Below, piece by piece: positions 13,001 through 45,427 of a DNA stretch of 64,000 bases. Origin of the DNA: Dictyostelium discoideum (lineage: Eukaryota); NCBI GenBank assembly GCA_000004695.1, contig CM000152.2, forward strand, positions 5,248,001-5,312,000. Reading direction: 5' to 3'. The first letter of the stretch is position 1. The number at the start of each line of letters is the position of its first letter. The notes under the pieces were generated by a model. That model had not been told where the DNA came from and did no database searches. It saw only the letters and a program-made list of their open reading frames with translations. The position numbers and the translations under genes are program-made.

Positions 13001-16000
13001 ATTTTAATATTTCTAATGTTGCTAAACCAATACCACCTGTTGCTGAGTGAATTAAAATGACTTCATCATCATCGATATTAAAATTACCAATGTTGAACAT
13101 ACCATGAAGACATGTTGAAAAAATGATTGGTAATGACGCTGCTTCAATATGACTAATATTATTTGGTTTATGTGAAACATAAAGTACATCAGTTATAACA
13201 TGAGATGCAGTTGCATCGTGTGATACACCAAAAACATTATCGCCTACTTTAAATTCACAATTTTTATTTTCATCAGATATTCTTGTGATAATACCTGAAA
13301 ATTCGAGACCAAGTGGATTTTTAGATATTGATACATTTTCATCAATAACAACTAAACCACGATAAATTAAATAATCTTTATAATTAATACCTGTTGCTAA
13401 AACTTTGACTTCAATTTCATTCTTTTTTAATTTCTTTGGTTTTGATGCTAATTTATATTCTAAATTTGTTGAATCTAAGAGTGTCATAAAATCATTATCT
13501 TCGAATGAATTTGAATTGAAGTTTGATTTTATATTCTTTTCATTCTTTAATATTTCATAATAAATTGAATTATTTCTAATTATATATTCTCTTTGAATAT
13601 GGTTATTTGAATTTTCAATCAATTGATTAATGATTTTATTTAATAATGATGATATCGATAATTGATTATCAAAATCGATTGAATATAGATTTAAACTTGG
13701 AAATTCATTAAAGTATCTTGATGCACCTATTATTGATGATGATAAATAGTTTTTGATTTGTGAATCAATAGTAATTAATACATGTTTACATGTTAAACTA
13801 TGTTTTAAAAGTTGTTGATTAATTTCAATATATTCCATTGTAATTTGTTTGAAATTATTCATTTCTAATTGTTCCATTGATTTAATAAAGTAAATTATTG
13901 AATCATTTGTTATTGAAGGTAATAGTTGATTAAATTCATTAATATTTGATATTGTTGTTTGTTTGCGATTGGTATGATTATTTGAAATTAATTTCTTAAA
14001 TTCATTTGTATATTTTGAATGTTTTTCACAATAAATGATAATATTATCATTTTTATTGTTTGGAACAACTGTTAATTCATTTGATAATATTGTAGATTTT
14101 TGTGATTGTATTACTTTGTTCGATTTCTGAATTTTGTTCTCATTAAAACCTACACCGATTAAATTATTGATATTAAATCGGATACCAATATCATCTTCAA
14201 TTATTAATAATAATAATCCATTTGAAGAAAGAATATTAAATATTGGTTTGATGATTGTTTCATCATTATTATTATTAATGATAATATCATAGTATGATGG
14301 TTTTAACTGGGTTATATCATTTTTAAAGATTAAACTTGAATCGTGTAAAGTTGGAAGTTTATCATTTGAATTATCAATAATTGTAAATTCTATATCGATT
14401 TCTTGTAAACTATTATCGAAAATTTGATTTAATGCTTCAATGATTTGTTTTGATAGTTCTGAATCTGAAAATGATTGTAAAATTCTAAAAACAATCTTTT
14501 CATTTATTATTGGTTTGATTGTTTGTTTAATAATTTCTGTAACTGTGTTGCTGCTGCCACTGCTGCTAGAAGTTTCATTATTATCAATGGATAAAATATT
14601 AACTAATGAATCTTTACATTGTAAATTATTTGTAAATAGTTCATTTGTAGGATTATTAAGTAATAATTCATCAATCAATGGAAGAGTTGAACGGAATGAT
14701 ATATGTTCTATTTCTAATAACTTTGTACCATCTTCTAATAAAACTAAAACTGATGATTTATAGCTATCTGCTTCCAAGGAGATGAATTTTGCTTGACAAT
14801 AGATATTCTTATATTTTAATTTGTCAGTTGGTATATTTTCAGAATAAACTTTTAAACCTTCAAGTCTTTCAAATACAAACTGGCTTGAATTTGTAATGAA
14901 TCCAGTGATGGCTTGTATACAGTTATCTAATAGCGCTATATTGAAAAATGATTTGTCAAATGTTTGATAAACAGGTTTACCATTGATATCAAAGTTTTCG
15001 TAGTTTATTTGTATTCTTGCAATTGTAAGATCATTGCCAAAGTGAAATTCTTCAATTCCTTGGAAAGTTCCTAAATGAGTGATACCTGATCTTAATTTAG
15101 AGTACTTATAAACTTCTTGTTTGGAAAGGGTAGTAAAATTACATTCTGATAGCAATTGATTTATATTATATTTAGATGAGTGATTATTATTATTATTATT
15201 ATTATTATCTTTTAATGATATAAGTTGAAAGTTACCAGTACATGTTTGAACCCATTGATTTGCTTTATTGTCTTTTATGTTGAATGTAACTCTATAATCA
15301 GTGTTACCTAATTGATAAACGTTGGTTTGTAAAATATGTTTGACATTTTCTTTTAAAACAAATGGTGCTAAAAATTCCAAGTTATTAATTACAATATCTT
15401 TATTTGGGTAAAGTTTCATAATATTATCAGCATATCCAATACCTGGGAAGTAATATTTTCCTTTTACAATATGGTCTTTTAAATATTTGAATGGATTTCT
15501 ATTTATATCGATTATTGATTCATATGATTTGTTATTTGATGAATAGTTAATCATTGATTTACCTAAGTTGTTGAAAACGTTTGGTCCATTTAATCTATAT
15601 TGTTCAAAGTTAATATCAACTTTCCAATAGTATTGTTCATCGAATTGATAGTTTGGTAAAATTATAGTGCTATTGTTTCTAATGGAATTGACATCATCAT
15701 CATTGTGATTGAATTGGCATTTAAAGTTTATATCATAACCTAAACAATAAATTTGTGAAATTGTTGAATGAATTTCATCTAAATCATTGGAGTTCTTTTT
15801 GTTTGTTGATGTTAATACTGAAACTGAATTAAAGTAACTTGATGATTTTGGTATCATTTGTTTTAAATAAAATGATAAACTTGGATGTGGTGAAACTTCA
15901 ATAAATATTAATTCATTACCAAGTTTATTATTTTCAATGTGTTGATATAAATTTGAAATAGTTTGAGAGAATCTGACAGGTTGTATTATATTTTCATAAA

Positions 16001-17275
16001 CATAACTTGAATTGAATGGAGTAGTTTCATGATTAAATAAATTAGTTGTAACTGTTGAAAATGTTGGAATTGTTGATTGTCTTGATGGTATTTCTAATGG
16101 TAAAATTTCATTTTTGGTTGAGTTTTGGCTACTTGTGTGGAATGATGATAATGAACCTAAAAATGCGCAAAAGATATTATTTTCTTTTAAGTCTAATGAT
16201 ATCTCTTTTAAAATATTTTCATTACCTGCAATTACAATTGATGTTGGTGAATTATAGCATGCAACTTCAATTGTTGGATATTTATTTGAATAAAGTTCAA
16301 TAAATTCTGAATGACTGATATTGACTGATAACATTTTACCACATCCATTTGTATTATTTTGAGAAATTGATCTGTGGTAAATTAATTTACAAACTGTTTG
16401 GAAATCTACCATACCTGAACAATATGATGTTGCTATTTCACCTAAACTATGACCAACAATGAATGATACATTGATACCCCAATGTTTGTATAGTTCAAAT
16501 AATGATATTTGTAACATTAATATCGATGGTTGAGCGATTATTGGTTGATGGATTGATATAATGTCATCATCTTTAATTGATCTTAATTTATCTAAAACTG
16601 AGTATCCATAGTATTTACTTAACTCTTTATTGAATTTGTCCATCGATGATCTGAATATTGGTTCACATTCATAAAGTTGTTGAGCCATTTTATTCCATTG
16701 TGAACCTTGACCTCCGAAAACAATAACAATCAATGGTTGATTTCTTTTAATTGTAATATTTGAGGATTTGTCATTGCTTGTTTTAAAGTACTTGTTTTTA
16801 GTTTTTAATTGATCCCAATTACTTGAAATTAAAACTGATCTTTGATATAGTTTCTTTGATTTTGAATAAATTTGATTCTTAACAAACTCTTTGAATGAAT
16901 TTGTAGAAAGATTATTATCATTTATTATTAAGTCTTCATAATTTTTTAATGATTTTACTGAATTGGCTGAAAATGGTATTAAAAATATTTGTTGTTGCGA
17001 TTCAATTGGATAACTAGGGTTATTACCATTTAGACTGATTGAGTGTTCAATAAATTGTGATAAAATTAAACAACAATTTGAGCCAGTTACACCAAAGTTA
17101 TTAATAACCATTGATACTGGTTTTTCATTAATATTTGTAAATGGTATTGCTTCTGTTACAACTTTAATATTCCAATCTTTAAAGTTAATCTTTGGATTTG
17201 GTTGATCAAAATTAACATTTGGTGCATAATGTTTATTTTTAAACATTAAACAACATTTGATTAATGATGCAACAC
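10026..17275 (-). CDS. pksA exon 2: type I iterative/reducing polyketide synthase, C-terminal 2415 codons (AT-DH-ER-KR-ACP-terminal reductase)
   Basis: Acceptor attAG|gt at 17277-17276 joins ...HCEAASG to [16 protein letters not shown], the conserved end of the KS domain. Motifs seen are AT GHSLGE ([17 protein letters not shown]), DH HxxxGxxxxP ([17 protein letters not shown]), ER NADPH site ([21 protein letters not shown]), KR Rossmann ([17 protein letters not shown]), ACP ([17 protein letters not shown]) and a C-terminal TGxxGxxG reductase/epimerase fold ([15 protein letters not shown]). Stop at 10026. Confidence 0.85.
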
Positions 17276-17366
17276 CTAATATTAATATTAATATTTATAA
17301 AAAAAAGAGTTAAAAATTAATATATATATTTTTTTTTTATATGGTTTATAAATGGTTATAGCTTAC

Positions 17367-18453
17367 CACTTGCAGCTTCACAATGACCAATATTAGATTT
17401 GAGTGATCCAATGAGTAATGGTTTAGATGGTGTTGATGTTGTTGATGAATTTAGAGCCATTGATACACCTTCTACTTCAATTGGATCACCTGTTGGTGTT
17501 CCTGTACCATGACATTCTACGAAACTAATATCTGATGCTTTCATATTTGCACTTTTCAATGCTAATTTGATATTATCAGATTGTGATTGTTTGGATGGTG
17601 AATAAAAGTTTGATTTATCATTTAAACCACCTCCATCGACATTTGAACTAAATGAATTAATTACACAATAAATATTATTACCATCTCTAATTGCGTCTGA
17701 TAATGGTTTTAAAATTACAATACCACAACTCTCTGCACGAATGTAACCATCTGCTTCTGAATCAAATGGTTTACATTTACCTTTTTTACTTAACATATTT
17801 AAAAATGAAAATGATTTTGAAACGTATGGATCAAGTAATAAACTGGCACCACCCACAATTGATAGATTTGAAGTACCATTTTGAATTGATTGAAAACCCA
17901 TTGTAATTGAATTCAATGATGAAGAACATGCTGTATCAATTGTCATTGATGGACCTCTGATATCATATGAAAATGATAATCTATTTGAAATGGTATGAAG
18001 AACATTTGATGCGAAATAATTTTCAGATGTTTCATTAAAGTCTCTATTTGTTGTTGAATAATCTAATGTTGAGCAACCAATGAAACAAGATGTATTTGAA
18101 CCTCTAATATCGATTGGATCGATGAATGCATCTTCTAATGCTTCCCATGTACACTTTAATAGTAATCTTGTTTGTGGATCCATTAGGGGTACTTCTGATG
18201 GATTGATTGCGAAATGAACTGGATCGAAATCACTCCATTCTTTTAATGGTAATAATCCACCAAATTTATTATTAACTTCACCGAGTAAATTGATATTGTC
18301 ACTCCATCTTTCTGATGTTTCAACAATACCACTGAATCCATTCTTTAAATTATTCCATAAATGTGAAACACTACCATTATTAATTGATTCTTTACCTTGT
18401 GGAATTCTAAATCCAATACCTACAATGGCAATTTCTTTATTTCCAAATTCCAT
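17367..18453 (-). CDS. pksA exon 1: ketosynthase (KS) domain N-terminal part
   Basis: ATG at 18453-18451 ([18 protein letters not shown]). KS motifs are DTACSSS (active Cys), [13 protein letters not shown] and [10 protein letters not shown]. The exon ends ...AGT G|GTAAGC (donor 17366-17361, phase 1) with a 91-nt intron. In this copy [12 protein letters not shown] is contiguous, so it lacks the KS intron found in pksB and pksC. Confidence 0.85.
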
Positions 18454-18989
18454 TTTCTTTTAATACACTAAAAACATTGATTCCAATAGTTGCTGATTAC
18501 ATAACGAAGGGAATGAGAGTGGACAATTAATTTTTAATCTTTTTATTTAAAAATATGGTGCTTTTTTGTTTTGTAAGGAATGTTAGAAATTATTACTATT
18601 TATTTATTTATTTTTATTTATATTTTAATATTATTACCATAAACACTTGTGTAAATAAATACATACATATAAATTATTTTTGTTAATTTTTTAAAAAGAA
18701 AAAAAAAAATTTTAAAAAAAAAAATTTAAAAAAAAAATGAAAAAAGAAAAAAAGAAAAAAATTATTAATAAAAAAAAAAAAAAAAAATAGAAAAAATATT
18801 ATTTAATAATAATTTAGTGGTGGTTTAAAACAATATATTTAATTTTATACTATATGATTGTTTAAAACAATTTGGAAATTATATTCTTTAATTTTTGGTT
18901 AATTTTTTTTTTTTTTTTTTTATCTTATTTTTTTTTTTTTTATAATTATTCTAATTAATTTAATATTATGATTTAAAAATAAAAAATTA

Positions 18990-19100
18990 ATATTTGAAAA
19001 GTGATTGGTGGTAAAAAAAAAAAAAAGTGATTGGTGGTAAAAAAAACTTACTTAACTTTTTTTTTTTTTCTTTTTTACCACCAATCTCTTTTCATATATT
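18990..19100. repeat. Direct repeat gtgattggtggtaaaaaaa x2 followed by inverted copy ttaccaccaatc (short hairpin-capable element).
   Basis: Read directly at 19000-19090. Confidence 0.6.
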
Positions 19101-19199
19101 AATTTTATATTTTTAAATCATAATATTAAATTAAAAAAAAATAAATTTATTTGCACAGAAAACTTAACAAAATATTAAAATATAATAAATAAAATTTAA

Positions 19200-19640
19200 T
19201 TTTAATAAAAGCTGTTAGTTCTTTTTTTAAATTAATAAATTTTATTAAAAAATAAGATAAAAATTAAAAAAAAAAAAAAAAATATATATTCAAAAATTAA
19301 ACTTATTTTATAATTAAAAAAAAAAAACATATTTTATTAAAATATAATTAATACTAAAAAATAAGATAATATAGGAATGTTAAAAATTAATTAAATAATA
19401 AATATTTAAAATTTATTATTTAATAAAAATTATTAAAAAATAAGATTTATTATAAAAATGTAACTTTAAAAAAAAAAATAATAAAATATATTGAAAAATA
19501 AGATGTATAATAAAAAAAAAAAATTTAAACATTTTATAATTTTAGATTTTATTATTAAACATCTTTAAAAATAAGATAAAAAATTCGTATGATAAATTTT
19601 AATAATTATAATCTTCTTTTGTTGGCTATAAAAGTAAGTT
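19200..19640. repeat. Degenerate tandem array (~60-110-bp spacing) of a unit containing catattttattaaaat...aaaaataagat; same family as 36600-37150 but inverted
   Basis: The core aaaaataagat recurs at roughly 19250, 19363, 19440, 19497 and 19570. The reverse-complement core atcttatttttt recurs at 36670-37105. Confidence 0.55.
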
Positions 19641-19974
19641 TTTAATTTTATTTTTATATTTAATAATATCTATTATTGTTTCGTTTTAATTTATTTTTAT
19701 TTTTTTTAATTTTTGTTTTTATAATTATACAATATCTATTATTATTATTTTTAATTTTTATTTTTATATCTATTATTAATTCATTTTAATTTTTTTTTTT
19801 TTTTTTAATTTTTATTTTTATTATAATGTAAAAAATTATGGTCACCCAAGTAGAAAATTAAAAGAAATAAATTTGTAAAAAAAAAGAAGCATTATTTTAT
19901 AATTCTTTATCTCTTTCTTTTAAAATAGTACCTTTTGTTCTTTTAATTTTTATTTTTTTCACGTAACAATGATA

Positions 19975-20115
19975 GTTCTAATTACGTTTGTGTTGGCATT
20001 CTTAATTTCCAAGTTACGTTCAATTTGAGAAATGTTTCAGTCTTGAAACAGAAAATCATTTAAACCATTGCCTTGTAACCCTTACCAAAGGCAGAGAAGA
20101 AAACATTAATTACTC
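19975..20115. other. GC-richer (~40% GC) island in A/T desert; candidate small ncRNA or transposon relic.
   Basis: acgtaacaatgatagttctaattacg...tgtttcagtcttgaaacag (local stem gtttcag/ctgaaac)...ccttaccaaaggcagagaag has a composition unlike the surrounding >85% A/T sequence. There is no ORF. Confidence 0.2.
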
Positions 20116-20477
20116 TTCAAGAATGGGTCAAAAATAGATATAATGTAAATTATTTATGTATTATTCAATATACTAATTTTTAAAAAAAAAATATCATTTT
20201 TTATACTAATTAAAAACTAATATCATTTTTTTTCTCCATATTATATATTTTTTATTATTTTATATATTAAATATATTATAATATAAAAATATTATATTAA
20301 TTTTTAACAATTTTCTTTGGGCTCTATAAAGCTCCCCACAAAACCATTTCCAAGTCAATCTCCTGCTGATTCTGCTGGTAAATGAATCAGATTCCGATTT
20401 AAATTAACCAAGCAATAAATTTTTTTTTTTTTATTATCAACTGTCTCATCAACTTCCAACAACAATTTCCTCCATTA

Positions 20478-20610
20478 TTTGTATCATTATTGTATCATCA
20501 CTGTTTCATTATAATAAATAATAATAATAAAATTTTCCAATATTTTTTTTTATTATTTATTATAATGAAACGGTAATGATACAATAATGATGAAACAGTA
20601 ATGATACAAT
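20478..20610. repeat. Imperfect long palindrome (arms ~55 bp, spacer ~12 bp) with the potential to form a hairpin.
   Basis: The left arm is tttgtatcattattgtatcatcactgtttcattataataaataataat. The right arm attatttattataatgaaacggtaatgatacaataatgatgaaacagtaatgatacaa is its reverse complement plus one extra gaaaca(g)taatgatac subunit. Confidence 0.6.
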
Positions 20611-20802
20611 TATCAATCAATAATCATATCTTAGTTAAACTAATTAATTTTTATAATAATTCATAATATTTGTAAATATTAAATTAAAAAAAAAAAAAAA
20701 AAAAAAAATAATTTAAAAATAAATATGGATAATAAAAATTTAGGTGGTGTAAAAAAGGTGCTTTGGATTTTAAGAAAAATGAAAAAACTAAGATTTGTTT
20801 AT

Positions 20803-23800
20803 TTAATTTTTAAAAATATAGTTTATATGATTTTGAATCATTTTTTCATTGACCATTCCTCCTTCATATGAGTTCATTGATTGTAATAATTCTTTAGTTT
20901 TCTTTGAAACTCCAAATCCATGACCCAAGTTATAAATGTTATATAAATCATCTAATGAATGGAATGTTTTTAATTTTATACATGATAGAATCTTTGATTG
21001 ATTAATGATATTCTTCCATTGTTCATATTCAACCATTTCACATCCATATTGCTTTTCCAAGAATGAGAATGAAGGGTTCATTGCTGAAACTTCACTATTT
21101 AAACTATAGATATTTAATTGATTTGAAGATGATTTATTCCAACATTTTTCATTTCCAATCATTTTAATTGTATTTAAACCTATCCAACCAATTGGTGATG
21201 TTAATATGTTTTTATCAATTTTTGGATACTTTTTAACTGCATAACATGATTGAATGATTAACTGCAAGAAATCAGAATCATGACCAATACCTGTTTCTTC
21301 ATGTGAGAATATAATTGGTGGTCTAATTAACATTGATGGAATACCTCTTTTTGCTGCTTCTCTAAATAAATTTTCAACAACTACTTTACTTTTCATATAA
21401 CCACCTGGTAAATTATTAATATTTTCAATTGTTGGTATTACTGTTTCTTCATCAAATTCTTTACAATTTGGTGCATTAAAGAATACTGATATTGAACTAA
21501 ATCCTACGATTGGTTTTTGATAATCACCAGTTGTTGAAAGTTTAATTAATTCAATGAAACCACCAATATTTACAACTTTACTCTCTTCATAATTTGATGC
21601 CAAATTAATATCGGCACCTGAATTAATTATTAAATTGATTTGATTTGAAATATAATCAAAATCTAATTTTGATAATCCTAATAATGGTGATGCTAAATTA
21701 CCAACTATAACTTTAACTTTTGATAATTCAAATTCATTGTGAAGTTGATATAGTTTATGATGTTTCAAATTATTAATTATTGCATTGATTGGATTTGATT
21801 CTGATTTTTTATTTCTAATTAAACAATATACAACTGAACAATTTGGTGATTTAATTAAGTTTGATAATAAATGAACACCTAAAAATCCTGTTGCGCCTGT
21901 TAAAAATACTTTTGAATCATTTCTAAAATCAATTGGATTCATTTTAATTGCTTGAATTGATTCATCTAATTTCATTTCATTTCTCCAATATTCTAAAGTT
22001 GGTGCTGAATCTTTTTTAATAATATATTTTGATTTTCCTTTAGTTTCATTTGAATCTAGTTTTTTGATTTGTTCTAAAATAATTTGAATATTTACTCCAA
22101 TTGTATTATTTTGTAATTGTTGAAGTGTAATTACATTTGATTTATTTTCTTTATCAATGAAATTCTTTAGTTGTACTGAAGTTAATGAATCTGCTCCATA
22201 ATCACTTAAACGAATATCTGTGTTGATCTTTGATTGTTCAATTGATAAGAGTTCTGAAATTTTATATAAAAATTTCATTTGGATACTTTCTGATATACTA
22301 ATATTTTCACCACCATTACTGTCATTATCTTTTTCTTTGATTGAATTTAAAATGAAATCTAATTTTTGGAAAGTTGATGTTTCTGATGCGAATTTCTTAA
22401 TTGAATCATAGTTAAATTTACTAACAATTAAATTTGAGTATTTATTTGAATTTTGAAGTTGTAAATCTAATGAACCTAAAATTATATTTGTTGGAATTGG
22501 AATGAAACCTTGATCATCTAACATTTTTGAAACTGAATCATTTCTTGATACGAAACCTGATGATTTAATTGTTCCCCAATTTGTGCATGTTGATGGTAAA
22601 CCAATTGATTTACGATATCTTGATAATGAATCTAATACTAAATTTGCAGAAACATAACTACATTGGTTGAATGAGCCAAATAATGATGCAATCGATGATG
22701 CCATAACAAATTGTTTTAATTTCCATGATTTCTCAATTGAAATTTCATGTAAATTAATTGCACCCATCGTTTTAGCATTATGTGAAATATTTAATGATTC
22801 AATATCGATTTCTTCTACTTCTTTAGTTACTTGAGTGAATGCATAATGGAATATTGAATCAATGTTATCAATGGTTGGATTTTCTAATAAAATTTGATTA
22901 ATTGATTTTCTCATTTCAATTGGATCACCAACATCCACACTATTGAAATGGAATTTAGTGTTATTATCCTTTCTTGATATTGTTTTATTGATTAATAGTT
23001 CTAACTCCCATTTTAATGATGATTTTGATAAAATGATAATGTTTTCAAGTGATCCTGTTGGAGGTTTTGAAGGTGAATATTTAATTAGCCATTTTAAGAT
23101 TTCTAAAATAATACCTGATTGACCTGTAATAATTATATTTTTACCAATTGTATTTATTGTATCGATATTAAAATCATATTTTAATATTGTGTGATTCTTT
23201 TCATTGTTATCTGATTCAATGAGTTGATTTAATAATCCATCACTACCGATACTACCATTTGAACAACTATGATCTAATACAATTTTACCAATATGTTTTC
23301 TTTGATTAATATATTCAATTGCTTCTTTGACATCTTCAATCTGGAATGTTGTTATTGGAATTAGTTTTAATTTATTTTCATTTAAAGCATTTGAAATGGA
23401 TTTTAATAATCTTGAAACTACTTTTTTATTAATATGCATAAATTCAATATTATGATAACTCTTGTTGAATTTGAAATTGTTGAAATTTAAAAATTCATTA
23501 TTATTTAAATGGGTGATTGAGAGATCAATGATTTTACCTCTTTCTTTTAAACATAAAAAGTTTGAATGTGTAAATTCATTTGGTAATGTATTTATAATTA
23601 AATCTACTCCGTTGAATTTACCAGTTGTACCATAAAGTTGATTTAATTTTGATTTGATTTCATTGACATAGTTTTTATTTCTTGATGAGTAAATTCCAGT
23701 TATGAATGATCCATAATTATCAATTAAATATTGTTCTTTATCTTTTGAACCTACTGTGACGAAAACTGGTGATTTATGACCTTTCCATTTTAGTATTTCC

Positions 23801-26800
23801 AATGCTGCTAAACCAATACCACCTGTTGCTGAGTGAATTAAAATTACTTCATCATCATCGATATTAAAATTACCAATGTTGAACATACCATGAAGACATG
23901 TTGAAAAAATGATTGGTAATGATGCTGCTTCAATATGACTAATATTATTCGGTTTATGTGAAATCCAAAATGCATCAGTTATAACATGAGATGCAGTTGA
24001 ATCGTGTGATACACCAAATACATTATCGCCTACTTTAAATTCACAATTTTGATTTTCATCAGATATTCTTGTGATAATACCTGAAAATTCGAGACCAAGT
24101 GGATTTTTAGATATTGATATATTTTCATCAATAATGACTAAACCACGATAAATTAAATAATCTTTATAATTAATACCTGTTGCTAAAACTTTGACTTCAA
24201 TTTCATTCTTTTTTAATTTCTTTGGTTTTGATGCTAATTTATATTCTAAATTTGTTGAATCTAAGAGTGTCATAAAATCATTATCTTCGAATGAATTTGA
24301 ATTGAAGTTTGATTTTATATTCTTTTCATTCTTTAATATTTCATAATAAATTGAATTATTTCTAATTATATATTCTCTTTGAATATGGTTATTTGAATTT
24401 TCAATCAATTGATTAATGATTTTATTTAATAATGATGATACTGATAATTGATTATCAAAATCGATTGAATATAGATTTAAACTTGGAAATTCATTAAAGT
24501 ATCTTGCTGTACCTATTATTGATGATGATAAATAGTTTTTGATTTGTGAATCAATAGTAATTAATACATGTTTACATGTTAAACTATGTTTTAAAAGTTG
24601 TTGATTAATTTCAATATATTCCATTGTAATTTGTTTGAAATTATTCATTTCTAATTGTTCCATTGATTTAATAAAGTAAATTATTGAATCATTTGTTATT
24701 GAAGGTAATAGTTGATTAAATTCATTACTATTCGATATTATTTGCTTGGAATTGGTATGATTATTTGAAATTAATTTCATAAATTCATTTGTATATTTTG
24801 AATGTTTTTCACAATAAATGATAATATTATCATTTTTATTGTTTGGAACAACTGTTAATTCATTTGATAATATTGTTGATTTTTGTGATTGTATTACTTT
24901 ATTTGAATTTTGAATTTTGTTTTCATTAAAACCTACATTGATTAAATTATTGATATTAAATTGAATACCAATATCATCTCCAACTATTAATAATAGTCCA
25001 TTTGAAGAAAGAATATTAAATATTGATTTGATGATTGTTTCATCATCACCATCATTATTATTATTAATGATAATATCATAGTATGATGGTTTTAACTGGG
25101 TTATATCATTTTTAAAGATTAAACTTGAATCGTGTAAAGTTGGAAGTTTATCATTTGAATTATCAATGATTGTAAATTCAATATCGATTTCTTGTAAACT
25201 ATTATCATCGAAAATTTGATTTAATGCTCCAATGATTTGTTTTGATAATTCTAAATCTGAAAATGATTGTAAAATTCTAAAAATAATTTTTTCATTAATA
25301 ATTGGTTTGATTGTTTGTTTAATAATTTCTGTAACTGTATTGCTGCTGCTGCTGCTAAAAGTTTGATTATTATCAATGGATAAAATATTAACTAATGAAT
25401 CTTTACATTGTAAGTTATTTGTAAATAATTCAGTTGTAGGATTATTAATTAATAATTCATCAATCAATGGAAGAGTTGAATGGAATGATAAATGTTCTAT
25501 TTCCAATAACTTTGTACCATCTTCTAATAAAACTAAAACTGATGATATATAGCTATCTGATTCCAAGGAGATGAATTTTGATTGACAATAGATATTTTTA
25601 TATTTTAATTTGTCAGTTGGTATATTTTCAGAATAAACTTTTAAACCTTCAAGTCTTTCAAATACAAACTGGCTTGAATTTGTAATGAATCCAATAATGG
25701 CTTGTGCGCAATTATCTAATAGCGCTGTATTGAAAAATGATTTGTCAAATGTTTGATAAACAGGTTTACCATTGATATCAAAGTTTTCGTAGTTTATTTG
25801 TATTCTTGCAATTGTAAGATCATTGCCAAAGTGAAATTCTTCAATTCCTTGGAAAGTTCCTAAATGAGTGATACCTGATCTTAATTTAATGTACTTGTAT
25901 GCATCTTGTTTTGAAAGAGTTGTAAAATAACATTCTGATAGTAATTGATTTATATCATATTTTGATGAGTTATGATCTTTTAATGATATAAGTTGAAAGT
26001 TACCAGTACATGTTTGAACCCATTGATTTGTTTTATTATCTTTTATGTTGAATGTGACTCTATAATCAGTGTTACCTAATTGATAAACGTTGGTTTGTAA
26101 AGTATGTTTGACATTTTCTTTTAAAACAAATGGTGCTAAAAATTCCAAGTTATTAATTACAATATCTTGATTTGGGTAAAGTTTCATAATATTATCAGCA
26201 TATCCAATACCTGGGAAGTAATATTTTCCTTTTACAATATGGTCTTTTAAATATTTGAATGGATTTCTATTTATATCGATTATTGATTCATATGATTTGT
26301 TATTTGATGAATAGTTAATCATTGATTTACCTAAGTTGTTGAAAACGTTTGGTCCATTTAATCTATATTGTTCAAAGTTAATATCAACTTTCCAATAGTG
26401 TTGTTCGTCGAATTGATAGTTTGGTAAACTGATATTGACCTTGCTGTTTCTAATGGAACTGACATCATCATTGTGATTGAATTGACACTTGAAGTTTACA
26501 TCATAACCTAAACAATAAATTTGTGAAATTGTTGAATGAACTTCATCTAAATCATTGGAGTTTTTTTTGTTTGTTGATGTTAATACTGAAACTGAATTAA
26601 AGTAACTTGATGATTTTGGTATCATTTGTTTTAAATAAAATGATAAACTTGGATGTGGTGAAACTTCAATAAATATTAATTCATTACCAAGTTTATTATT
26701 TTCAATGTGTTGATATAAATTTGAAATAGTTTGAGAGAATCTGACAGGTTGTATTATATTTTCATAAACATAACTTGAATTGAATGGAGTAGTTTCATGA

Positions 26801-28042
26801 TTAAATAAATTGGTTGTAACTGTTGAAAATGTTGGAATTGTTGATTGTCTTGATGGTATATCTAATGGTAAAATTTCATTTTTAGTTGAATGTTGACTAC
26901 TTGTGTGGAATGATGATAATGAACCTAAAAATGCACAAAAGATATTATTTTCTTTTAAATCTAATGATATCTCTTTTAAAATATTTTCATTACCTGCAAT
27001 TACAATTGATGTTGGTGAATTATAACATGCAACTTCAATTGTTGGATATTTATTTGAATAAAGTTCAATAAATTCTGAATGACTGATATTGACTGATAAC
27101 ATTTTACCACAACCGTTTGTATTATTTTGAGAAATTGATCTGTGGTAAATTAATTTGCAAACTGTTTGGAAATCTACCATACCTGAACAATATGATGTTG
27201 CGATTTCACCTAAACTATGACCAACAATGAATGATACATTGATACCCCAATGTTTGTATAGTTCAAATAATGATATTTGTAACATTAATATTGATGGTTG
27301 AGCGATTATTGGTTGATGTATTGATATAATATCATCATCTTTAATTGATCTTAATTTATCTAAAACTGAGTATCCATAGTATTTACTTAACTCTTTATTG
27401 AATTTATCCATCGATGATCGGAATATTGGTTCACATTCATAAAGTTGTTGAGCCATTTTATTCCATTGTGAACCTTGACCTCCGAAAACAATAACAACTA
27501 ATGGTTGATTTCTTTTAATAGTAATATTTGAGGATTTGTCATTATTTGTTTTAAAGTACTTGTTTTTAGTTTTTAATTGATCCCAATTAATTGAAATTAA
27601 AACTGATCTTTGATATAATTTCTTTGATTTTGAGTAAATTTGATTCTTAACAAACTCTTTGAATGAATTTGTAGAAAGATTATTATCATTTATTATTAAG
27701 TCTTCATAATTTTTTAATGATTTTACTGAATTGGCTGAAAATGGTATTAAAAATCTTTGTTGTTGTTGTGATTCAATTGGATAACTAGGGTTATTACCAT
27801 TTTGATTGATTGTTCAATAAACTGTGATAAAACTAAACAACAATTTGAACCAGTTACACCAAAGTTATTAATAACCATTGATACTGGTTTTTCATTAATA
27901 TTTGTAAATGGTATTGCTTCTGTTACAACTTTAATATTCCAATCTTTAAAGTTAATCTTTGGATTTGGTTGATCAAAATTAACATTTGGTGCATAATGTT
28001 TATTTTTAAACATTAAACAACATTTGATTAATGATCCAACAC
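20803..28042 (-). pseudogene. pksB exon 3 (AT-DH-ER-KR-ACP-reductase), carrying a frameshift about 45 codons in that leads to a premature stop; probable PKS pseudogene, or a sequencing error in a 4-bp repeat.
   Basis: Acceptor tttcAG|gt at 28044-28043, joining AASG to [16 protein letters not shown]. The frame stops at 27747 (…[26 protein letters not shown]). pksC has gaacaatcaATCAatcaaaatggtaat (3x GATT units at 44541-44553), whereas pksB has gaacaatcaatcaaaatggtaat (2 units at 27803-27814). This 4-bp contraction shifts translation into the frame that then stays open for 2217 codons ([10 protein letters not shown]... is in-frame far upstream of its first Met). No GT...AG intron with a compensating phase is available. 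Confidence 0.5.
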
Positions 28043-28130
28043 CTGAAATTAATATTTATAAAATAAAAAAAAAGTTAGAATTAATATTTTTGGTTTTTTT
28101 TATTTTATTTTATAAATGGTTATAACTTAC

Positions 28131-28595
28131 CACTTGCAGCTTCACTATGACCAATATTAGATTTGAGTGATCCAATGAGTAATGGTTTAGATGGTGTTGA
28201 TGTTTTTGATGAATTTAGAGCCATTGATATGCCTTCTACTTCAATTGGGTCACCTGTTGGTGTTCCTGTACCATGACATTCTACGAAACTAATATCTGAT
28301 GCTTTCATATTTGCACTTTTCAATGCTAATTTGATATTATCAGATTGTGATTGTTTGGATGGTGAATAAAAGTTTGATTTATCATTTAAACCACCTCCAT
28401 CGACATTTGAACTAAATGAATTAATTACACAATAAATATTATTACCATCTCTAATTGCGTCTGATAATGGTTTTAAAATTACAATACCACAACTCTCTGC
28501 ACGAATGTAACCATCTGCTTCTGAATCAAATGGTTTACATTTACCTTTTTTACTTAGCATATTTAAAAATGAAAATGATTTTGAAATGTATGGAT
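28131..28595 (-). CDS. pksB exon 2 (KS domain, central part)
   Basis: Acceptor tataG|at at 28597-28596 (G+AT makes Asp in ...[24 protein letters not shown]). It ends AGT G|GTAAGT (donor 28130-28125). Motifs [10 protein letters not shown] and [10 protein letters not shown] are present. Confidence 0.8.
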
Positions 28596-28693
28596 CTATA
28601 TAAATAAATGTATATAATAATTAAAAAAAAAAGAAAAAGAAAATTGAAGAATAAAAATAAAATAATAAATGTTTAAATTCTGAATTAACATAC

Positions 28694-29315
28694 CAAGTAA
28701 TAAACTGACACCACCCACAATTGATAGATTTGAAGTACCATTTTGAATTGATTGAAAACCCATTGCAATTGAATTCAATGATGAAGAACATGCTGTATCA
28801 ATTGTCATTGATGGACCTCTGATATCATATGAAAATGATAATCTATTTGAAATGGTATGAAGAACATTTGATGCGAAATAATTTTCAGATGTTTCATTAA
28901 AGTCTCTATTTGTTGTTGAATAATCTAATGTTGAGCAACCAATGAAACAAGATGTATTTGAACCTCTAATATCGATTGGATCGATGAATGCATCTTCTAA
29001 TGCTTCCCATGTACACTTTAATAGTAATCTTGTTTGTGGATCCATTAGGGGTACTTCTGATGGATTGATTGCGAAATGAACTGGATCGAAATCACTCCAT
29101 TCTTTTAATGGTAATAATCCACCAAATTTATTATTAACTTCACCGAGTAAATTGATATTGTCACTCCATCTTTCTGATGTTTCAACAATACCACTGAATC
29201 CATTCTTTAAATTATTCCATAAATGTGAAACACTACCATTATTAATTGATTCTTTACCTTGTGGAATTCTAAATCCAATACCTACAATCGCAATTTCTTT
29301 ATTTTTAAATTCCAT
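28694..29315 (-). CDS. pksB exon 1 (KS N-terminus with TACSSS active site)
   Basis: ATG at 29315-29313 ([15 protein letters not shown]). It ends CTT G|GTATGT (donor 28693-28688) with a 98-nt A/T-rich intron. pksA lacks this intron. Confidence 0.8.
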
Positions 29316-29910
29316 TTTTTTTTTTTTTTTTTTTTTTTAGTACACCAAAAATAAAAATAAAATAAAAAAAAATAAAACAATTTATACCATTTAAAAATAT
29401 TACTATTTTGAAGGACCAAAGTGAGAAATGAAAACTTTGCTCTTGATAGTTATGATTACATTCCAAAGGGGGCTGATTATTAATTAATTTTAAATCTTTT
29501 GGTTATAAAAAAAAAAAAATAAAATTGAGAATTTTTAAAAAAAAAAAATTAAAAAAGAAAATAAAAAAAAATTAAAAAAAAAAATTAAAAAATCTCCAAA
29601 AATATCTTATTACCTAATTATCATCGGGAAAAAAAAAAGTTGATTAGAAACAAAAATTATTTTAAATTTTTATTGGAGCCTGTGGTTTTTGCAAGATATT
29701 TTAAATAACACTTTGAAACCAAAAGTTGTAATTAGTAAAAATAAAAAAAAAAAAAATAGAAGATTATATTTGGGCAAATAAAAAAAAAAATTTTATGGTA
29801 TTAAATTAAATATTTAATTTAGCCATGAGATTTAAATAATTTAAGATTTATTTTTTACACTTTGGGATTTTTTTTTATTTTTTTATTTCCGGAACTCTTT
29901 TAATTAAGGA

Positions 29911-30030
29911 TGTTGTAGGGAATTTTCAATAAAATTTCACTACAGTAGCGTAGTGAATTTTATTATTTAATTTCACTACAGTAGCGTAGTGAAAAAAAAA
30001 AATCACTGACCCTAAATTTTTTTTTTTTTC
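29911..30030 (+). repeat. Left terminal inverted repeat of the transposon, containing an internal 2x direct subrepeat aatttcactacagtagcgtagtgaa.
   Basis: It pairs with 33237-33356 as a reverse complement. Confidence 0.8.
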
Positions 30031-30420
30031 AAAAAACAAATAAAGTTTATTAAATTATTATCTTTTATTTGATTATTAGTTCTATTTAAGTTTTTTTATT
30101 TTTTTTTTTTTATTTTATTTTTTTTTTTTTTTATTTTATTTTTTTTTTTTTTTTTTGCGCCAAAATTTTTTTTTTTTTTCCCCAACAAAACTTTTTTTTT
30201 TTTTTTTTTTTTTTTTATTTTCATTTTCCCAAAATGAAACAAGATAAATTATTTAAAATTTATTGAAGATAATAATTTTGAAAATACTAAACATAAAAAT
30301 TATAAATTTTTACATGATGAGTAAATATTTTTCCTTACCATAACACAATCATTTTTTAAATTCTGACCAATAAAAAACAGAAACAGAAAAGAAAAATTAT
30401 TTAGAATTGAAAAAAAAGTC

Positions 30421-32345
30421 ATGAATTGTGGCGGAGATAGAAATATATCAAAAGAAGTGTGTTTAGAAGTAATTAATGATTATAGAATGGTATCACTCTG
30501 GGAAGAAATGCATAAAGGTCATATAGGAAGAGATGCAACCTATGGGAACTACAAGACTAAATATTATAATATGGGATTGTATTCTTTTGTATCTGATGCA
30601 GTAGATACGTGTGACATTTGCCAACGAAATAGAATAAAAGGTTTGGTATCAATCATTTTTTATATGATGTTTTGTAACTTTTATATTAAAACTCTGTGAA
30701 AGTATGGCACTGCGATAATGGACGTGAATTTAAAAACAAAGTCCAAAAAGAATTCCTAAAACTTTTTCCAGGCTCCAAGTCAGCACATGGAGCTCCTCGT
30801 ACACCAACAACTCAAGGTATGGTAGAAAGATTGAATCGAACTATCAAGGAGAGGATCTCAAAATTAAAACAACAAGAGTATGATATTGTGAACAATATAA
30901 ATTATCGATATGTTTATTAATTAATCATTTATAAATAAATTTTAGTTTTCTTGATGGTACTTCTAGGTCTCTTTCTGAACTATTAAAACAAGCTTTGTAT
31001 GATTACAATAATACAAAAACAAGAACAATTAAAATGACACCATCTCAAGCTGTTGGTATTGTACCTTTGTTTATTAATGTGCAATCAGAACAAGACTCTC
31101 AATCAATTGGTGTTTCAGATGTTTCAAAAGAAGAAATAACAGCTATTATTCTTGAAAATCTCACAAGTTACCAAAATCAATGGAATTCAAAACCACCAAA
31201 GGGATTGAAAGTTGGTGATACTGTACTCTTTCTAGAAATTAAAAAAAATAATGTAAGTAATTAAAACATAAAGATTAATAATATATGAAACAGTAATAAT
31301 TAACAAATTTTATATTTAATTCTAATAGAAAATATTGATTTTGTGTAAAATTCATAAGGTAATACAGGAAGACACTAAACAACTTTATAAACTTGAATTT
31401 TTGGAAGATGGAATCAATAGCCTTCAAAAAAAAGGTTTATACTCTGGTTTTGTAGGAGGTAACAAGTTGGTTCTTTATAAACAATCAACAGTTGATATTT
31501 TTAGAACATCGCCAAACATACAAAAAGATATTGATTCTTTTACTTCTGGTCTTTATTTAAATAATGATGGGAAAGTTATTGAATTTCTGGTTCAGTTTAT
31601 TAAAAATCTTGGTAAGGATTTATCCAATTTCAACTTGCATCAATTGGTAACACAAAATGATCCATTTAGGGTTTTGGAAGATGCTCTTAACAATCCATCA
31701 AATATTCCACCTATCATTAACGATAATCCATTTCAACACAAACTCAATAATGAAATGGAACAAGAAGAAATACTCCCATTTTTAAATAATAATCCAACAG
31801 CGCCAAATTTAATGAATTGTTTGAGAAAGGATATGAATTTAAAAGAAATAGTACCACCAATACCTCAAGTGCAAATAATACCATCATATACTATACCACA
31901 ATCTGGTAGTGGTATAGTAACAACTGTTAAACGTCTCAGAGGCCGTCCTCATAAGATACCAATTGTTAATAAACCTCCTTTAAAATCACATTCTAAACCA
32001 TCCAAATCACCTCTCAAATCAACATCCAAATCACCTCTCAAATCAACATCCATTTCACCTTCCAATTCACCATTTAAATCACCATTTAAATCACCTTCCA
32101 AATCACCATTTAAATTACCTTCCAAATCACCATCCATTTCACCTTCCAATTCACCATTTAAATCACCTTCCAATTCACCATTTAAATCACCATTTAAATC
32201 ACCTTCCAAATCACCATCAATAGGAAAAATCGTTAATGTGATACCTTCAAAAAAAGTTGCAAAAACAAAGTCAACAAGGACACAAAAATTAGAACTTGAT
32301 TTGGTTGCAATTAATAGAAGGGGGTATGGGGAAATTAGAAAATAA
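30421..32345 (+). CDS. Transposon-encoded integrase-like protein (multi-exon): HHCC zinc finger, partial DDE core, C-terminal domain, then AT-hook and SPKK-type repeats
   Basis: Exon a carries the HHCC pattern H..H...C..C (HKGHIGRDATYGNYKTKYYNMGLYSFVSDAVDTCDICQRN). Next come WHCDNGREFKNK (the second Asp of DD35E) and HGAPRTPTTQGMVERLNRTIKE (the Glu motif). The splice ga|GTATGA (~30874)...ttttAG|t (~30945) gives D-FLDGTSRSLSELLKQALYDYNNTKTRTIKMTPSQAV, the integrase C-terminus, followed by KVGDTVLF. AAT|GTAAGT (31256)...taatAG (31326) continues into KILILCKIHKV..., then KRLRGRPHK (AT-hook) and (SPxKS)n repeats. Only ~2 residues separate HHCC from the second-Asp motif, so the first catalytic Asp region seems to be missing. 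Confidence 0.6.
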
Positions 32346-32670
32346 AAACAAGTGGCCAAATCAAAAAAACAAAAAAAACACAAATCAACACAAAAAATTA
32401 AAAAAAAAAAAAAAAATTAAAAATTAAAAAAAAAAAAAATTGAAAAAAATAAAAAAAAATTACATTTGTTAAAAAAAATAAAAAAAAATAAAAAAAAATA
32501 AAACTTAAAAAAAATTGAAAAAACAAAATAAAAAAAAAAAATTGAAAAAACAAAATAAAAAAAAATTTCAAAAAAAAAGAATGATCGAAGAATTAATAGA
32601 TTCGATAAAACTCTTAAGAAATTTAGCCATTGAATATGGCAATGAAGAATAGTTAGATTCAGAGGAAAAT

Positions 32671-32979
32671 TTGACTAAATTCCTCGAAAAAGCAGCCAAA
32701 GTACTATATGTAAATAGTGGTGATGCTTTAATCGTTAAAAATTCAAATATGATGTTAGAAGCATTAGAATTAAAATCAAAACAATTTCACCAACATTGTG
32801 TAAAAACTGTAATAGAAAACGAATTATATTTGGACTTTTTTGTATACAAAGGAAAATGCAAAAACATCAAATGCACCAGAGGTAACAAAGCTAGAAAAAA
32901 TTCAATTGTGTGCAGTGTTTACAGTGATATGGTAAATCAAGCAATTGAACAACTCAGGGAGTTAATAAAAATAAATTAA
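32671..32979 (+). CDS. Small transposon-internal ORF (102 aa, Cys-containing), function unknown
   Basis: ATG-initiated ORF with normal composition between the integrase gene and the right inverted repeat. Confidence 0.3.
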   Translation: MTKFLEKAAKVLYVNSGDALIVKNSNMMLEALELKSKQFHQHCVKTVIENELYLDFFVYKGKCKNIKCTRGNKARKNSIVCSVYSDMVNQAIEQLRELIKIN

Positions 32980-33120
32980 TAAAAATAAATTAAAAAAAAA
33001 AAAATTGAAAAAAAAAAAAAATTAACAATAATAATAAATAAAATAATAATTAAAACAAAAAATAAAATTACAATTTAATAAACAAATAAAAATTGAAAAA
33101 AATTTAAAAAAAAAAAATTG

Positions 33121-33153
<33 letters not shown>

Positions 33154-33236
33154 AACAATAATTATAATAAAAATAAATAAAATAATAATTAAAACAAAAA
33201 ATAAAATTTCAATTTAATAAACTTTATTTGTTTTTT

Positions 33237-33356
33237 GAAAAAAAAAAAAATTTAAGGTCAGTGATTTTTTTTTTTCACTACGCTACTGTAGTGAAATTAA
33301 ATAATAAAATTCACTACGCTACTGTAGTGAAATTTTATGGAAAATTCCCTACAACA
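33237..33356 (-). repeat. Right terminal inverted repeat of the transposon.
   Basis: It is the reverse complement of 29911-30030. Confidence 0.8.
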
Positions 33357-34379: not shown

Positions 34380-34900
34380 AACAGTTCTTTGTTTTTAATT
34401 AGAGAATTATCGATGGTGTCAATAATCTCATCAAGGAAGGACCCATGGGAATTACGTTCTCGGTAGAAATGTTCTTGATATAGCCAAAGAAACGCTCAAT
34501 GGGATTCAACTCTGGGAATAGGAAGGAAGAAATATCAATTGAACCGAATATTGATTAAACAATTCAAATAGTGCATTTAAAGCTTCGATACCACCGTGAA
34601 TTGGAGCATTGTCCATTACCAATAATAAACCAGGCTTGCAAAATCCACTTTCCAAAAGTTCTCTAACATATTGAAAGAAGTCTTCGGTATTATTGGTTTT
34701 ATCACGGATTTTATACAAACAATCATCCAAACAGATGGTGAAAAACCCATGTAGGTCTCAGAAATGCTGGTGCTATTAGTAACATAAACCGGCTCTCCAA
34801 TTGGTCCAACATCTTTAGATCTCCTTAATTCTAATAAAAAACTTTATTAGTTTTAATTATTTATTTTGTAATAAATAAAAAAAAATTAATAAATAGTTAT
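34380..34900 (-). pseudogene. Tc1/mariner-superfamily (DDE_3) transposase remnant with frameshifts.
   Basis: The minus-strand translation reads ...DFFQYVRELLESGFCKPGLLLVMDNAPIHGGIEALNALFELFNQYSVQLIFLPSYSQS*. Frame +1 continues as YSPELNPIERFFGYIKNISTEN. The FLPxYSPELNPIE box after a DNAP(x)H Asp is the C-terminal signature of Tc1/mariner/pogo transposases. The sequence is broken by at least one frameshift and has no clean ATG. Confidence 0.6.
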
Positions 34901-37532: not shown

Positions 37533-40500
37533 TTAATTTTTAAAAATATAGTTTATATGATTTTGAATCATTTTTTCATTAACCATTCCTCCTTCATATG
37601 AGTTCATTGATTGTAATAATTCTTTAGTTTTCTTTGAAACACCAAATCCATTACCCAAGTTATAAATATTATATAAATCATCTAATGAATGGAATGTTTT
37701 TAATTTTACACATGATAGAATCTTTGATTGATTAATGATATTCTTCCATTGTTCATATTCAACCATTTCACATCCATATTGCTTTTCCAAGAATGAGAAT
37801 GAAGGGTTCATTGCTGAAACTTCACTATTTAAACTATAGATATTTAATTGATTTGAAGATGATTTATTCCAACATTTTTCATTTCCAATCATTTTAATTG
37901 TATTTAAACTTATCCAACCAATTGGTGATGTTAATATGTTTTTATCAATTTTTGGATACTTTTTAACTGCATAACATGATTGAATAATTAATTGGAAGAA
38001 ATCAGAATCATGACCAATACCTGTTTCTTCATGTGAGAATATAATTGGTGGTCTAATTAACATTGATGGAATACCTCTTTTTGCTACTTCTCTTAATAAA
38101 TTTTCAACAACTACTTTACTTTTCATATAACCACCTGGTAAATTATTAATATTTTCAATTGTTGGTATTACTGTTTCTTCATCAAATTCTTTACAATTTG
38201 ATGCATTAAAGAATACTGATACTGAGCTAAATCCTACAATTGGTTTTTGATAATCACCAGTTGTTGAAAGTTTAATTAATTCAATGAAACCACCAATATT
38301 TACAACTTTACTCTCTTCATAATTTGATGCTAAATTAATATCGGCACCTGAATTAATTATTAAATTAATTTGATTTGAAATATAATCAAAATCTAATTTT
38401 GATAATCCTAATAATGGTGATGCTAAATTACCAACTATTACTTTAATTTTTGATAATTCAAATTCATTGTGAAAGTGATATAGTTTATGATGTTTCAAAT
38501 TATTAATTATAGCATTGATTGGATTTGGTTCTGATTTTTTATTTCTAATTAAACAATATACAACTGAACAATTTGGTGATTTAATTAAGTTTGATAATAA
38601 ATGAACACCTAAAAATCCGGTTGCACCTGTTAAAAATACTTTTGAATCATTTCTAAAATCAATTGGATTCATTTTAATTGCTTGAATTGATTCATCTAAT
38701 TTCATTTCATTTCTCCAATAGTCTAAAGTTGGTGCTGAATCTTTTTTAATAATATTTTTTGATTTTCCTTTAGTTTCATTTGAATCTAGTTTTTTGATTT
38801 GTTCTAAAATAGTTTGAATATTCATATCAATTGTATTATTTTGTAACTGTTGAAGTGTAATTACATTTGATTTAATATCTTTATCAATGAAATTCTTTAA
38901 TTGTACTGAAGTTAATGAATCTGCTCCATAATCACTTAAACGAATATCTGTGTTGATCTTTGATTGTTCAATTGATAAGAGTTCTGAAATTTTATTTAAA
39001 ATCTTTGTTTGTATACTTTCTGATACACTATTTTCACCACCATTACTATCATTATCTTTTTCTTTGATTGAATTTAAAATGAAATCTAATCTTTGGAAAG
39101 TTGATGTTTCTGATGATAATTTCTTAATTGAATCATAGTTAAATTTACTAACAATTAAGTTTGAATTTTTATTTGAATTTTGAAGTTGTAAATCTAATGA
39201 ACCTAAAATTATATTTGTTGGAATTGGAATGAAACCTTGATCATCTAACATTTTTGAAACTAATTCATTTCTTGATACAAAACCTGCTGATTTAATTGCA
39301 CCCCAATTTGTACATGTTGATGGTAAACCAATTGATTTACGATATCTTGATAATGAATCTAATACTAAATTTGCAGAAACATAACTACATTGGTTGAATG
39401 AGCCAAATAATGATGCAATCGATGATGCCATAACAAATTGTTTTAATTTCCATGATTTCTCAATTGAAATTTCATGTAAATTAATTGCACCCATCGTTTT
39501 AGCATTATGTGAAATATCTAATGATTCAATATCGATTTCTTCTACTTCTTTAGTTATTTGAGCGAATGCATAATGGAATATTGAATCAATGTTATCAATA
39601 TTTGGATTTTCTAATAAAATTTGATTAATTGATTTTCTCATTTCAATTGGATCACCAACATCTACACTCTTGAAATGGAATTTAGTGTTATTATCCTTTC
39701 TTGATATTGTTTTATTGATTAATAGTTCTAACTCCCATTTTAATGATGATTTTGATAAAATGATAATGTTTTCAAATGATTCTGTTGGTGAATATTTAAT
39801 TAACCATTTTAAGATTTCTAAAATAATACCTGATTGACCTGTAATAATTATATTTTTACCAATTATATTTTTTGTATCAATTTTGAAATCATATTTTAGT
39901 ATTGTGTGATTCTTTTCATTGTTATCTGATTCAATGAGTTGATTTAATAATCCATCACTACCGATACTACCATTTGAACAACTATGATCTAATACAATTT
40001 TACCAATATGTTTTCTTTGATTAATATATTCAATTGCTTCTTTGACATCTTCAATCTGGAATGTTGTTATTGGAATTGGTTTTAATTTGTTTTCATTTAA
40101 AGCATTTGAAATGGATTTTAATAATCTTGAAACTACTTTTTTATTAATATGCATAAGTTCAATATTATGATAACTCTTGTTAAATTTGAAATTGTTGAAA
40201 TTTAAAAATTCATTGTTATTTAAATGGGTAATTGAAAGATCAATGATTTTACCTCTTTCTTTTAAACATAAAAAGTTTGAATGTGTAAATTCATTTGGTA
40301 ATGTATTTATAATTAAATCTACTCCGTTGAATTTACCAGTTGTACCATAAAGTTGATTTAATTTTGATTTGATTTCATTTACATAGTTTTTATTTCTTGA
40401 TGAATAAATACCAGTTATGAATGATCCATAATTATCAATTAAATATTGTTCTTTATCTTTTGAACCTACTGTGACGAAAATTGGTGATTTATGACCTTTC

Positions 40501-44785: not shown

Positions 44786-44864
44786 CTATTAATATTTATA
44801 AAATGAAAAAAAGAGTTAAAATTAATGTTTTTTATTTTTTTTTTTATAAATGGTTACAACTTAC

Positions 44865-45329
44865 CACTTGCAGCTTCAGAATGACCAATATTAGATTTGA
44901 GTGATCCAATGAGTAATGGTTTAGATGGTGTTGATGTTTTCGATGAATTTAGAGCCATTGATACACCTTCTACTTCAATTGGATCACCTGTTGGTGTTCC
45001 TGTACCATGACATTCTACGAAACTAATATCTGATGCTTTCATATTTGCACTTTTCAATGCTAATTTGATATTATCAGATTGTGATTGTTTGGATGGTGAA
45101 TAAAAGTTTGATTTATCATTTAAACCACCTCCATCGACATTTGAACTAAATGAATTAATTACACAATAAATATTATTACCATCTCTAATTGCGTCTGATA
45201 ATGGTTTTAAAATTACAATACCACAACTCTCTGCACGAATGTAACCATCTGCTTCTGAATCAAATGGTTTACATTTACCTTTTTTACTTAGCATATTTAA
45301 AAATGAAAATGATTTTGAAATGTATGGAT
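44865..45329 (-). CDS. pksC exon 2 (KS central part)
   Basis: Acceptor tataG|at at 45331-45330 and donor G|GTAAGT at 44864-44859, identical to the pksB structure. Confidence 0.8.
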
Positions 45330-45427
45330 CTATATAAATAAATGTATATAATAATTAAAAAAAAAAGAAAAAGAAAATTGAAGAATAAAAATAAAATAAT
45401 AAATGTTTAAATTCTGAATTAACATAC

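Follow-up and report, generated by a model that had tools for sequence, protein, structure and literature searches.

A young pseudogene in a tandem polyketide synthase array of Dictyostelium discoideum: pks20 is very probably frameshifted by the loss of one CAAT unit

Short changes in coding length have been linked to lost or switched gene function in several systems. In Mycobacterium tuberculosis, Constant and coworkers reportedly described in 2002 a 7-bp deletion in pks15/1 that goes with the loss of phenolic glycolipid. In Haemophilus influenzae, the (CAAT)n contingency locus lic1 switches its reading frame when slipped-strand mispairing adds or removes one unit. Closer to the gene described here, Zucko and coworkers are said to have counted 45 polyketide synthase (PKS) genes in Dictyostelium discoideum in 2007, 5 of them probably pseudogenes. 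The PKS genes of this species include five pseudogenes with open reading frames (ORFs) that are interrupted by stop codons (PMC9618038). The pks20 locus shares its genome and gene family with these AX4 pseudogenes (five of about 45), and it has the same ORF-interrupting kind of defect.

We analyzed a 64,000-nt stretch of D. discoideum DNA (the window, to which coordinates refer unless another assembly is named), which has a G+C content of 23%. Its minus strand carries three closely related type I PKS genes in tandem, copies A, B, and C (pksA, pksB, and pksC in the original prediction), with short, AT-rich GT...AG introns. Their gene models were derived from three-way alignments. Copy A (10026 to 18453; exons 18453-17367 and 17275-10026) is intact, and its 2778-aa translation is identical to UniProt Q54T36, the AX4 "Probable polyketide synthase 19" (DDB_G0282027). 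Copy C (37533 to 46049; exons 46049-45428, 45329-44865, and 44785-37533) is also intact, and its 2779-aa translation is identical to UniProt B0G138, "Probable polyketide synthase 21" (DDB_G0282029). Flanked by exact pks19 and exact pks21, copy B corresponds to the pks20 locus in the NC4/AX4 lineage of D. discoideum and is the middle gene of a pks21-pks20-pks19 array. This assignment is based on position and numbering. No AX4 protein for a gene between pks19 and pks21 was found among the protein cluster members, and the gap in the UniProt numbering between these two genes is presumably a mark of the pseudogene status of pks20. The array belongs to the Dictyostelium highly reducing iterative type I PKSs, with the architecture KS-AT-DH-ER-KR-ACP-R (the pks19/pks21 group).

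The pks20 exons are 29315-28694, 28595-28131, and 28042-20803 on the minus strand. Exon 1 begins with the ATG at 29315 and encodes the N-terminal part of the KS, including the DTACSSS active site, and exon 2 continues the KS domain. Intron 1 (28596 to 28693; 98 nt, GTATGT...TATAG) is present in pks21 and not in pks19, and intron 2 (28043 to 28130; 88 nt, GTAAGT...TTTCAG, 89% A+T) is common to all three genes, each at equivalent positions. Exon 3 begins in the original frame with the end of the KS and the first half of the KS-AT linker domain (27750 to 28042). The rest of this exon (20803 to 27813) is in the -1 frame and encodes the second half of the linker, AT, DH, ER, KR, ACP, and reductase (R). 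As read from the translation, the start codon and splice sites are undamaged. Copy B is 96.7% identical to pks21 in nucleotides and 95.2% in protein, which falls short of the figure of more than 97% in the original prediction. It is marginally closer to pks19 (96.9% nucleotide and 95.8% protein identity).

The lesion is a contracted tetranucleotide repeat at 27804 to 27812 (codons 440-443 of pks20), with (CAAT)2 as its coding-strand sequence and GATTGATTG as its plus-strand sequence. In the three-way alignment, the homologous tract of pks21 (44543-44555, minus strand; plus-strand sequence GATTGATTGATTG) is (CAAT)3. That of pks19 (17033-17045, minus strand; plus-strand sequence GACTGATTGAGTG) is degenerate and in frame, with the same length as the pks21 tract but without a perfect repeat. 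The minus-strand sequences are GAACAATCAATCAAAATGG in copy B, GAACAATCAATCAATCAAAATGG in copy C, and GAACACTCAATCAGTCTAAATGG in copy A. Copy B is shorter by exactly one CAAT (plus-strand GATT) unit, and the flanks are identical. The proposal that a 4-bp repeat contraction interrupts pksB is borne out by this alignment. It had been put as one GATT unit lost relative to both neighbors, which is correct for pksC and its (CAAT)3, whereas pksA has only the degenerate tract of the same length. The copies also differ by 6 and 9 nt in a neighboring (CAA)n tract. Compensation of the frameshift by a nearby (CAA)n indel was ruled out, because all of these differences are multiples of 3.

The spliced pks20 coding sequence (CDS) is 8327 nt, which leaves a remainder of 2 on division by 3, and no continuous frame spans all of the PKS domains. 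The upstream frame stays open between 28055 and 27750 before it meets a TAA stop (27747 to 27749, minus strand) at codon 461, with 442 native codons followed by 18 aberrant ones. In the downstream frame, 2336 codons are open (27813 to 20806) up to the normal TAA. A premature stop and an open downstream frame had both been predicted, and both are present. However, the predicted distance of 21 codons to the stop applies only if counting begins at the start of the repeat, and the predicted 2217 open codons are those that follow the first ATG of the downstream frame, at 27456.

When the 4 bases were put back, pks20 encoded a 2776-aa protein with the natural terminator as its sole stop. A Pfam scan with this conceptually repaired protein as the query found the full PKS domain set (PF00109, PF02801, PF16197, PF00698, PF21089, PF08240/PF13602, PF08659, PF23297, and PF07993): KS (residues 6-386), the KS C-terminal extension/linker domain (PF16197; residues 388-510), AT (549-861), DH (945-1027), ER (1642-1953), KR (2000-2190), ACP (2279-2365), and the terminal reductase R (2411-2642). 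The lesion, at residue 443, is inside the PF16197 domain and between KS and AT, so its predicted location in the KS-AT linker was correct. The catalytic motifs read from the translation are intact (DTACSSS, HGTGT, GHSLGE, HxxxGxxxxP of the DH, DSL of the ACP, and GATGFLG of the R domain).

We conclude that pks20 is very probably a young, nonprocessed pseudogene that arose by the loss of one CAAT unit from a (CAAT)3 tract, with the flanking paralogues being redundant. A perfect (CAAT)3 in the variable, Q-rich KS-AT linker would have lost one unit, most likely by strand slippage (slipped-strand mispairing) in replication or repair. We infer slippage because exactly one repeat unit is missing, the indel being the difference between (CAAT)3 and (CAAT)2. 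Slippage at the repeat appears to be the most economical mechanism. Even so, misaligned gene conversion between paralogues could yield the same product, and a three-unit tetranucleotide tract is a weak microsatellite. We also considered a recombination or gene conversion breakpoint exactly at the deletion. There is a switch from pks21-like to pks19-like sequence there, but a fine mosaic continues on both sides, and this candidate was rejected. In AX4 mutation accumulation lines, the indel rate is 2 times the substitution rate, deletions are 4.5 times as frequent as insertions, and 32% of indels are in simple repeats (PMC7466956).

Owing to the -1 shift, the predicted product is 460 residues long, with a complete KS followed by half of the linker domain. 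The AT, DH, ER, KR, ACP, and R domains would remain untranslated, and the sequence predicts that no functional megasynthase is made. The pks20 transcript would be nonproductive. Its loss would presumably be tolerated because of the flanking paralogues, which have 95-96% protein identity.

The array was sampled in four other D. discoideum or cf. discoideum assemblies (ACTFIR, ACTFIY, ACTFIW, and ACTFIZ). ACTFIR and ACTFIY have two array genes each, between a vault-protein gene and the downstream neighbor. There are at least three in ACTFIW, compared to three in the window, and ACTFIZ ("D. cf. discoideum") has six and a fragment with KS/ACP matches. We compared the linker segment between conserved anchors (minus strand; 27751-27833 in pks20, 16983-17066 in pks19, and 44484-44576 in pks21). 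In the 16 copies from the other strains it is 84, 87, 90, 93, 96, 99, or 102 nt. The only segment of 83 nt is that of pks20, both in the window and in a second assembly, GCA_054883475.1. The original prediction had raised the question of a longer tract in other strains. All 16 of those copies have a segment divisible by three and are in frame, and several have a perfect (CAAT)3.

The two-unit tract of pks20 is probably the derived state, with the paralogues pointing to an ancestral (CAAT)3. This polarity depends on paralogues because the other strains lack a one-to-one pks20 orthologue and differ in copy number. In a neighbor-joining tree of the 5.6 kb downstream of the linker, pks21 groups with the first copies of ACTFIR and ACTFIW, pks20 and pks19 are sisters that are 3.3% apart, and none of the genes in the four other strains is a one-to-one orthologue of pks20. 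Copy B is not a very recent duplicate of pks19 or pks21, since it carries 100 private substitutions and lies 3.3 to 4% from each of them. The (CAA)n/poly-Q tract of the KS-AT linker differs in length in almost every copy (segment of 84-102 nt). In-frame indels are evidently tolerated in the linker, and therefore it is a likely place for an occasional out-of-frame one.

Private variant sites number 100 in copy B, 149 in copy A, and 172 in copy C of the window, and they form a fine mosaic. In the codon alignment, 51 of the B-private single-nucleotide changes are synonymous and 36 are nonsynonymous. The resulting omega for the B branch is 0.18 (95% confidence interval [CI], 0.11-0.28), compared to 0.24 for pks19 and 0.26 for pks21. 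With the intact genes as the baseline, the neutral fraction of the B branch is at most approximately 3%. No second stop or frameshift was found in the 8.3 kb of pks20. Relaxed constraint or extra lesions would be expected of a pseudogene, and pks20 has neither. However, we read the unrelaxed omega and the absence of further lesions as a sign of recent inactivation and not as evidence against pseudogene status. Because the signature of purifying selection persists and the rest of pks20 is intact, the inactivation looks recent relative to the approximately 3% divergence from the paralogues, in agreement with the original prediction.

Over approximately the first 900 nt, the three CDSs share more than 99% identity, whereas the rest of the genes are 3-4% apart. 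This near-identical 5' part is in the KS exons (28131-29315, 44865-46049, and 17367-18453, minus strand). Such a pattern marks concerted evolution confined to the KS region, and it shows that gene conversion is active. Ongoing gene conversion could make an older pks20 pseudogene look young by erasing later damage. The description of pksB as a nascent pseudogene is supported, with the word nascent being valid only if gene conversion has not repaired this copy. Intron 1 is identical in pks20 (28596-28693) and pks21 (45330-45427) and precisely absent from pks19 (site 17824-17841). It is also missing from the first array copy in the four other strains (L003-L008), which is the copy that groups with pks21. 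The distribution of intron 1 conflicts with the phylogeny of the 3' 5.6 kb, which suggests 5' exchange or gene conversion among the paralogues.

We also weighed readings in which pks20 retains a function. One is that it yields a useful product without any further splicing, either as a 460-aa KS that acts in trans with pks19/pks21 or by -1 frameshifting or transcriptional slippage. The truncation comes just after a complete KS (Pfam residues 6-386) with its Cys and His motifs intact, both frames are open over 27813-27750, and the low omega of the B branch would fit continued selection. However, although a -1 shift would bring the frame back, the sequence from the beginning of exon 3 to the premature stop contains no canonical X XXY YYZ slippery heptamer for -1 ribosomal frameshifting. 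Reinitiation at the ATG at 27456 would begin after the GGQGSQW motif of the AT, giving a protein without the start of that domain. A free-standing KS would also be missing half of the linker domain, whereas the KS of an iterative type I PKS works within a KS-AT didomain (type I PKS/FAS architecture). We consider a useful product of this kind very unlikely.

A different route to function is suggested by a deposited protein. A protein search of GCA_054883475.1 found KAM9950444.1 (2762 aa; locus tag ACTFIT_011696; gene model at L001 10001-18513) between exact copies of pks19 and pks21. Removal of 38 nt (GTTTATTGAACAATCAATCAAAATGGTAATAACCCTAG; 27785 to 27822, minus strand; GTTTATTG...CCCTAG) from the copy B CDS gives KAM9950444.1 exactly. 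Therefore, the annotation pipeline of that assembly met the identical frameshift and bridged it with an "intron." If this 38-nt mini-intron were spliced out of the transcript, the frame would be restored at the cost of 14 linker residues, and pks20 would be functional. The exact match to the deposited 2762-aa protein is in its favor, as are the GT and AG ends of the segment and the location of the removed residues in a variable linker. However, the segment is unlike the true introns of these genes, even the shortest of which is more than twice as long (79-117 nt versus 38 nt). Its A+T content is 71% versus 87-89%, and its 5' site reads GTTTAT, where the true introns have GTAAGT or GTATGT. Furthermore, all 15 annotated homologues, with D. 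citrinum and D. firmibasis among their sources, translate the corresponding stretch in frame and retain the LSQ(F/Y)I... segment. To get past a frameshift, gene predictors routinely call artificial introns. From these sequence features, we judge the 38-nt "intron" to be a probable annotation artifact, and we give little credence to a spliced, functional pks20.

A bolder version is that the 4-bp deletion itself created a functional 38-nt micro-intron (27785-27822), so that a slice of the variable linker was "intronized" and the megasynthase was kept alive; this would also account for the low dN/dS on the pks20 branch, but we regard it as very improbable.

The other alternative, raised by the original prediction, is an error in sequencing or assembly, with a genome that is truly (CAAT)3 and an intact pks20. 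Errors in base calling and consensus classically occur in short repeats, and the remainder of pks20 is flawless. However, 19,109 bp of GCA_054883475.1 (locus L001) match window positions 10803-29911 at 99.995% identity, the two-unit repeat included, and the alignment has a single mismatch and no gaps. Elsewhere, the window differs from that assembly by a 3445-bp insertion, a transposon, and by several small indels. Because these differences set the two assemblies apart, GCA_054883475.1 is an independent determination of the two-unit allele. Its annotation also needed the invented intron to obtain an open frame, and a clean loss of 4 nt in a mixed-base repeat is atypical of Sanger or long-read consensus error. 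Therefore, with the disabling lesion reproduced in a second assembly and absent from the 16 other copies, an error is extremely improbable. The lesion is real, and the allele is confirmed in the same or a nearly identical lineage. An exact-protein lookup of the 2217-aa downstream ORF for more contigs with this allele returned no record, and scanning metagenomes for the B-type junction, in its two-unit or three-unit form, gave 0 matches.

The insertion that distinguishes the window from GCA_054883475.1 is a 3445-bp DNA transposon at 29912-33356. The second assembly has the empty site ATATCCTTAATT. The element is bounded by 269-nt terminal inverted repeats (TGTTGTAGGG...CCCTACAACA) and a 5-bp target duplication (TCCTT), its integrase-like ORFs (Integrase_H2C2 and rve_3) are broken, and we take it to resemble the Tdd-4/DDT family. 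It is 597 bp upstream of the pks20 ATG and may also affect the pks20 promoter. The 8-kb spacer between pks21 and pks20 also contains a short ORF (34506-34730, minus strand) that matches a DDE_3 transposase with an E value of 4.5e-6, just below Pfam's cutoff. It is probably a remnant of another transposon.

A search of the Dictyostelium literature for pks20, pks19, pks21, and the DDB_G identifiers found no paper that names the locus. Nevertheless, the pks20 lesion is a rediscovery of an annotated pseudogene that was already known, with its identity resting on position and numbering. It is an ordinary case, because five PKS pseudogenes are already recognized in the genome. What is added here is the exact lesion, its confirmation in a second assembly, its apparently derived and recent state, and the newer GenBank model that masks it. 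In KAM9950444.1, pks20 looks like an intact protein of 2762 aa. Genome-mining efforts to count functional PKSs could be misled by this model, and automated surveys are likely to include it as an intact PKS. The biological consequence of the lesion is small, since it very probably removes a single PKS gene out of about 45 and leaves two near-identical neighbors in place. pks20 is also of value as a clean and datable case in which the Dictyostelium genome, rich in repeats and biased toward deletions, has eroded a member of a fast-evolving tandem PKS array.

Set beside the systems outside Dictyostelium, pks20 has features of both. As in pks15/1, the deletion is short and lineage-specific and puts a type I PKS out of frame between the KS and the AT-to-ACP portion. 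A KS-only ORF and a second open frame are left, and the product is lost (for pks20, predicted to be lost). However, pks15/1 is bacterial, so its downstream ORF is separately translatable, and the bases deleted from it do not make up a whole repeat unit. The metabolic consequence in that case has also reportedly been demonstrated, whereas that of pks20 is predicted. As in lic1, the change is a single CAAT unit in a coding region that shifts the frame. However, lic1 has tens of units and is a reversible, high-rate, regulatory switch, whereas pks20 is a eukaryotic gene in which the tract would have gone from 3 units to 2.
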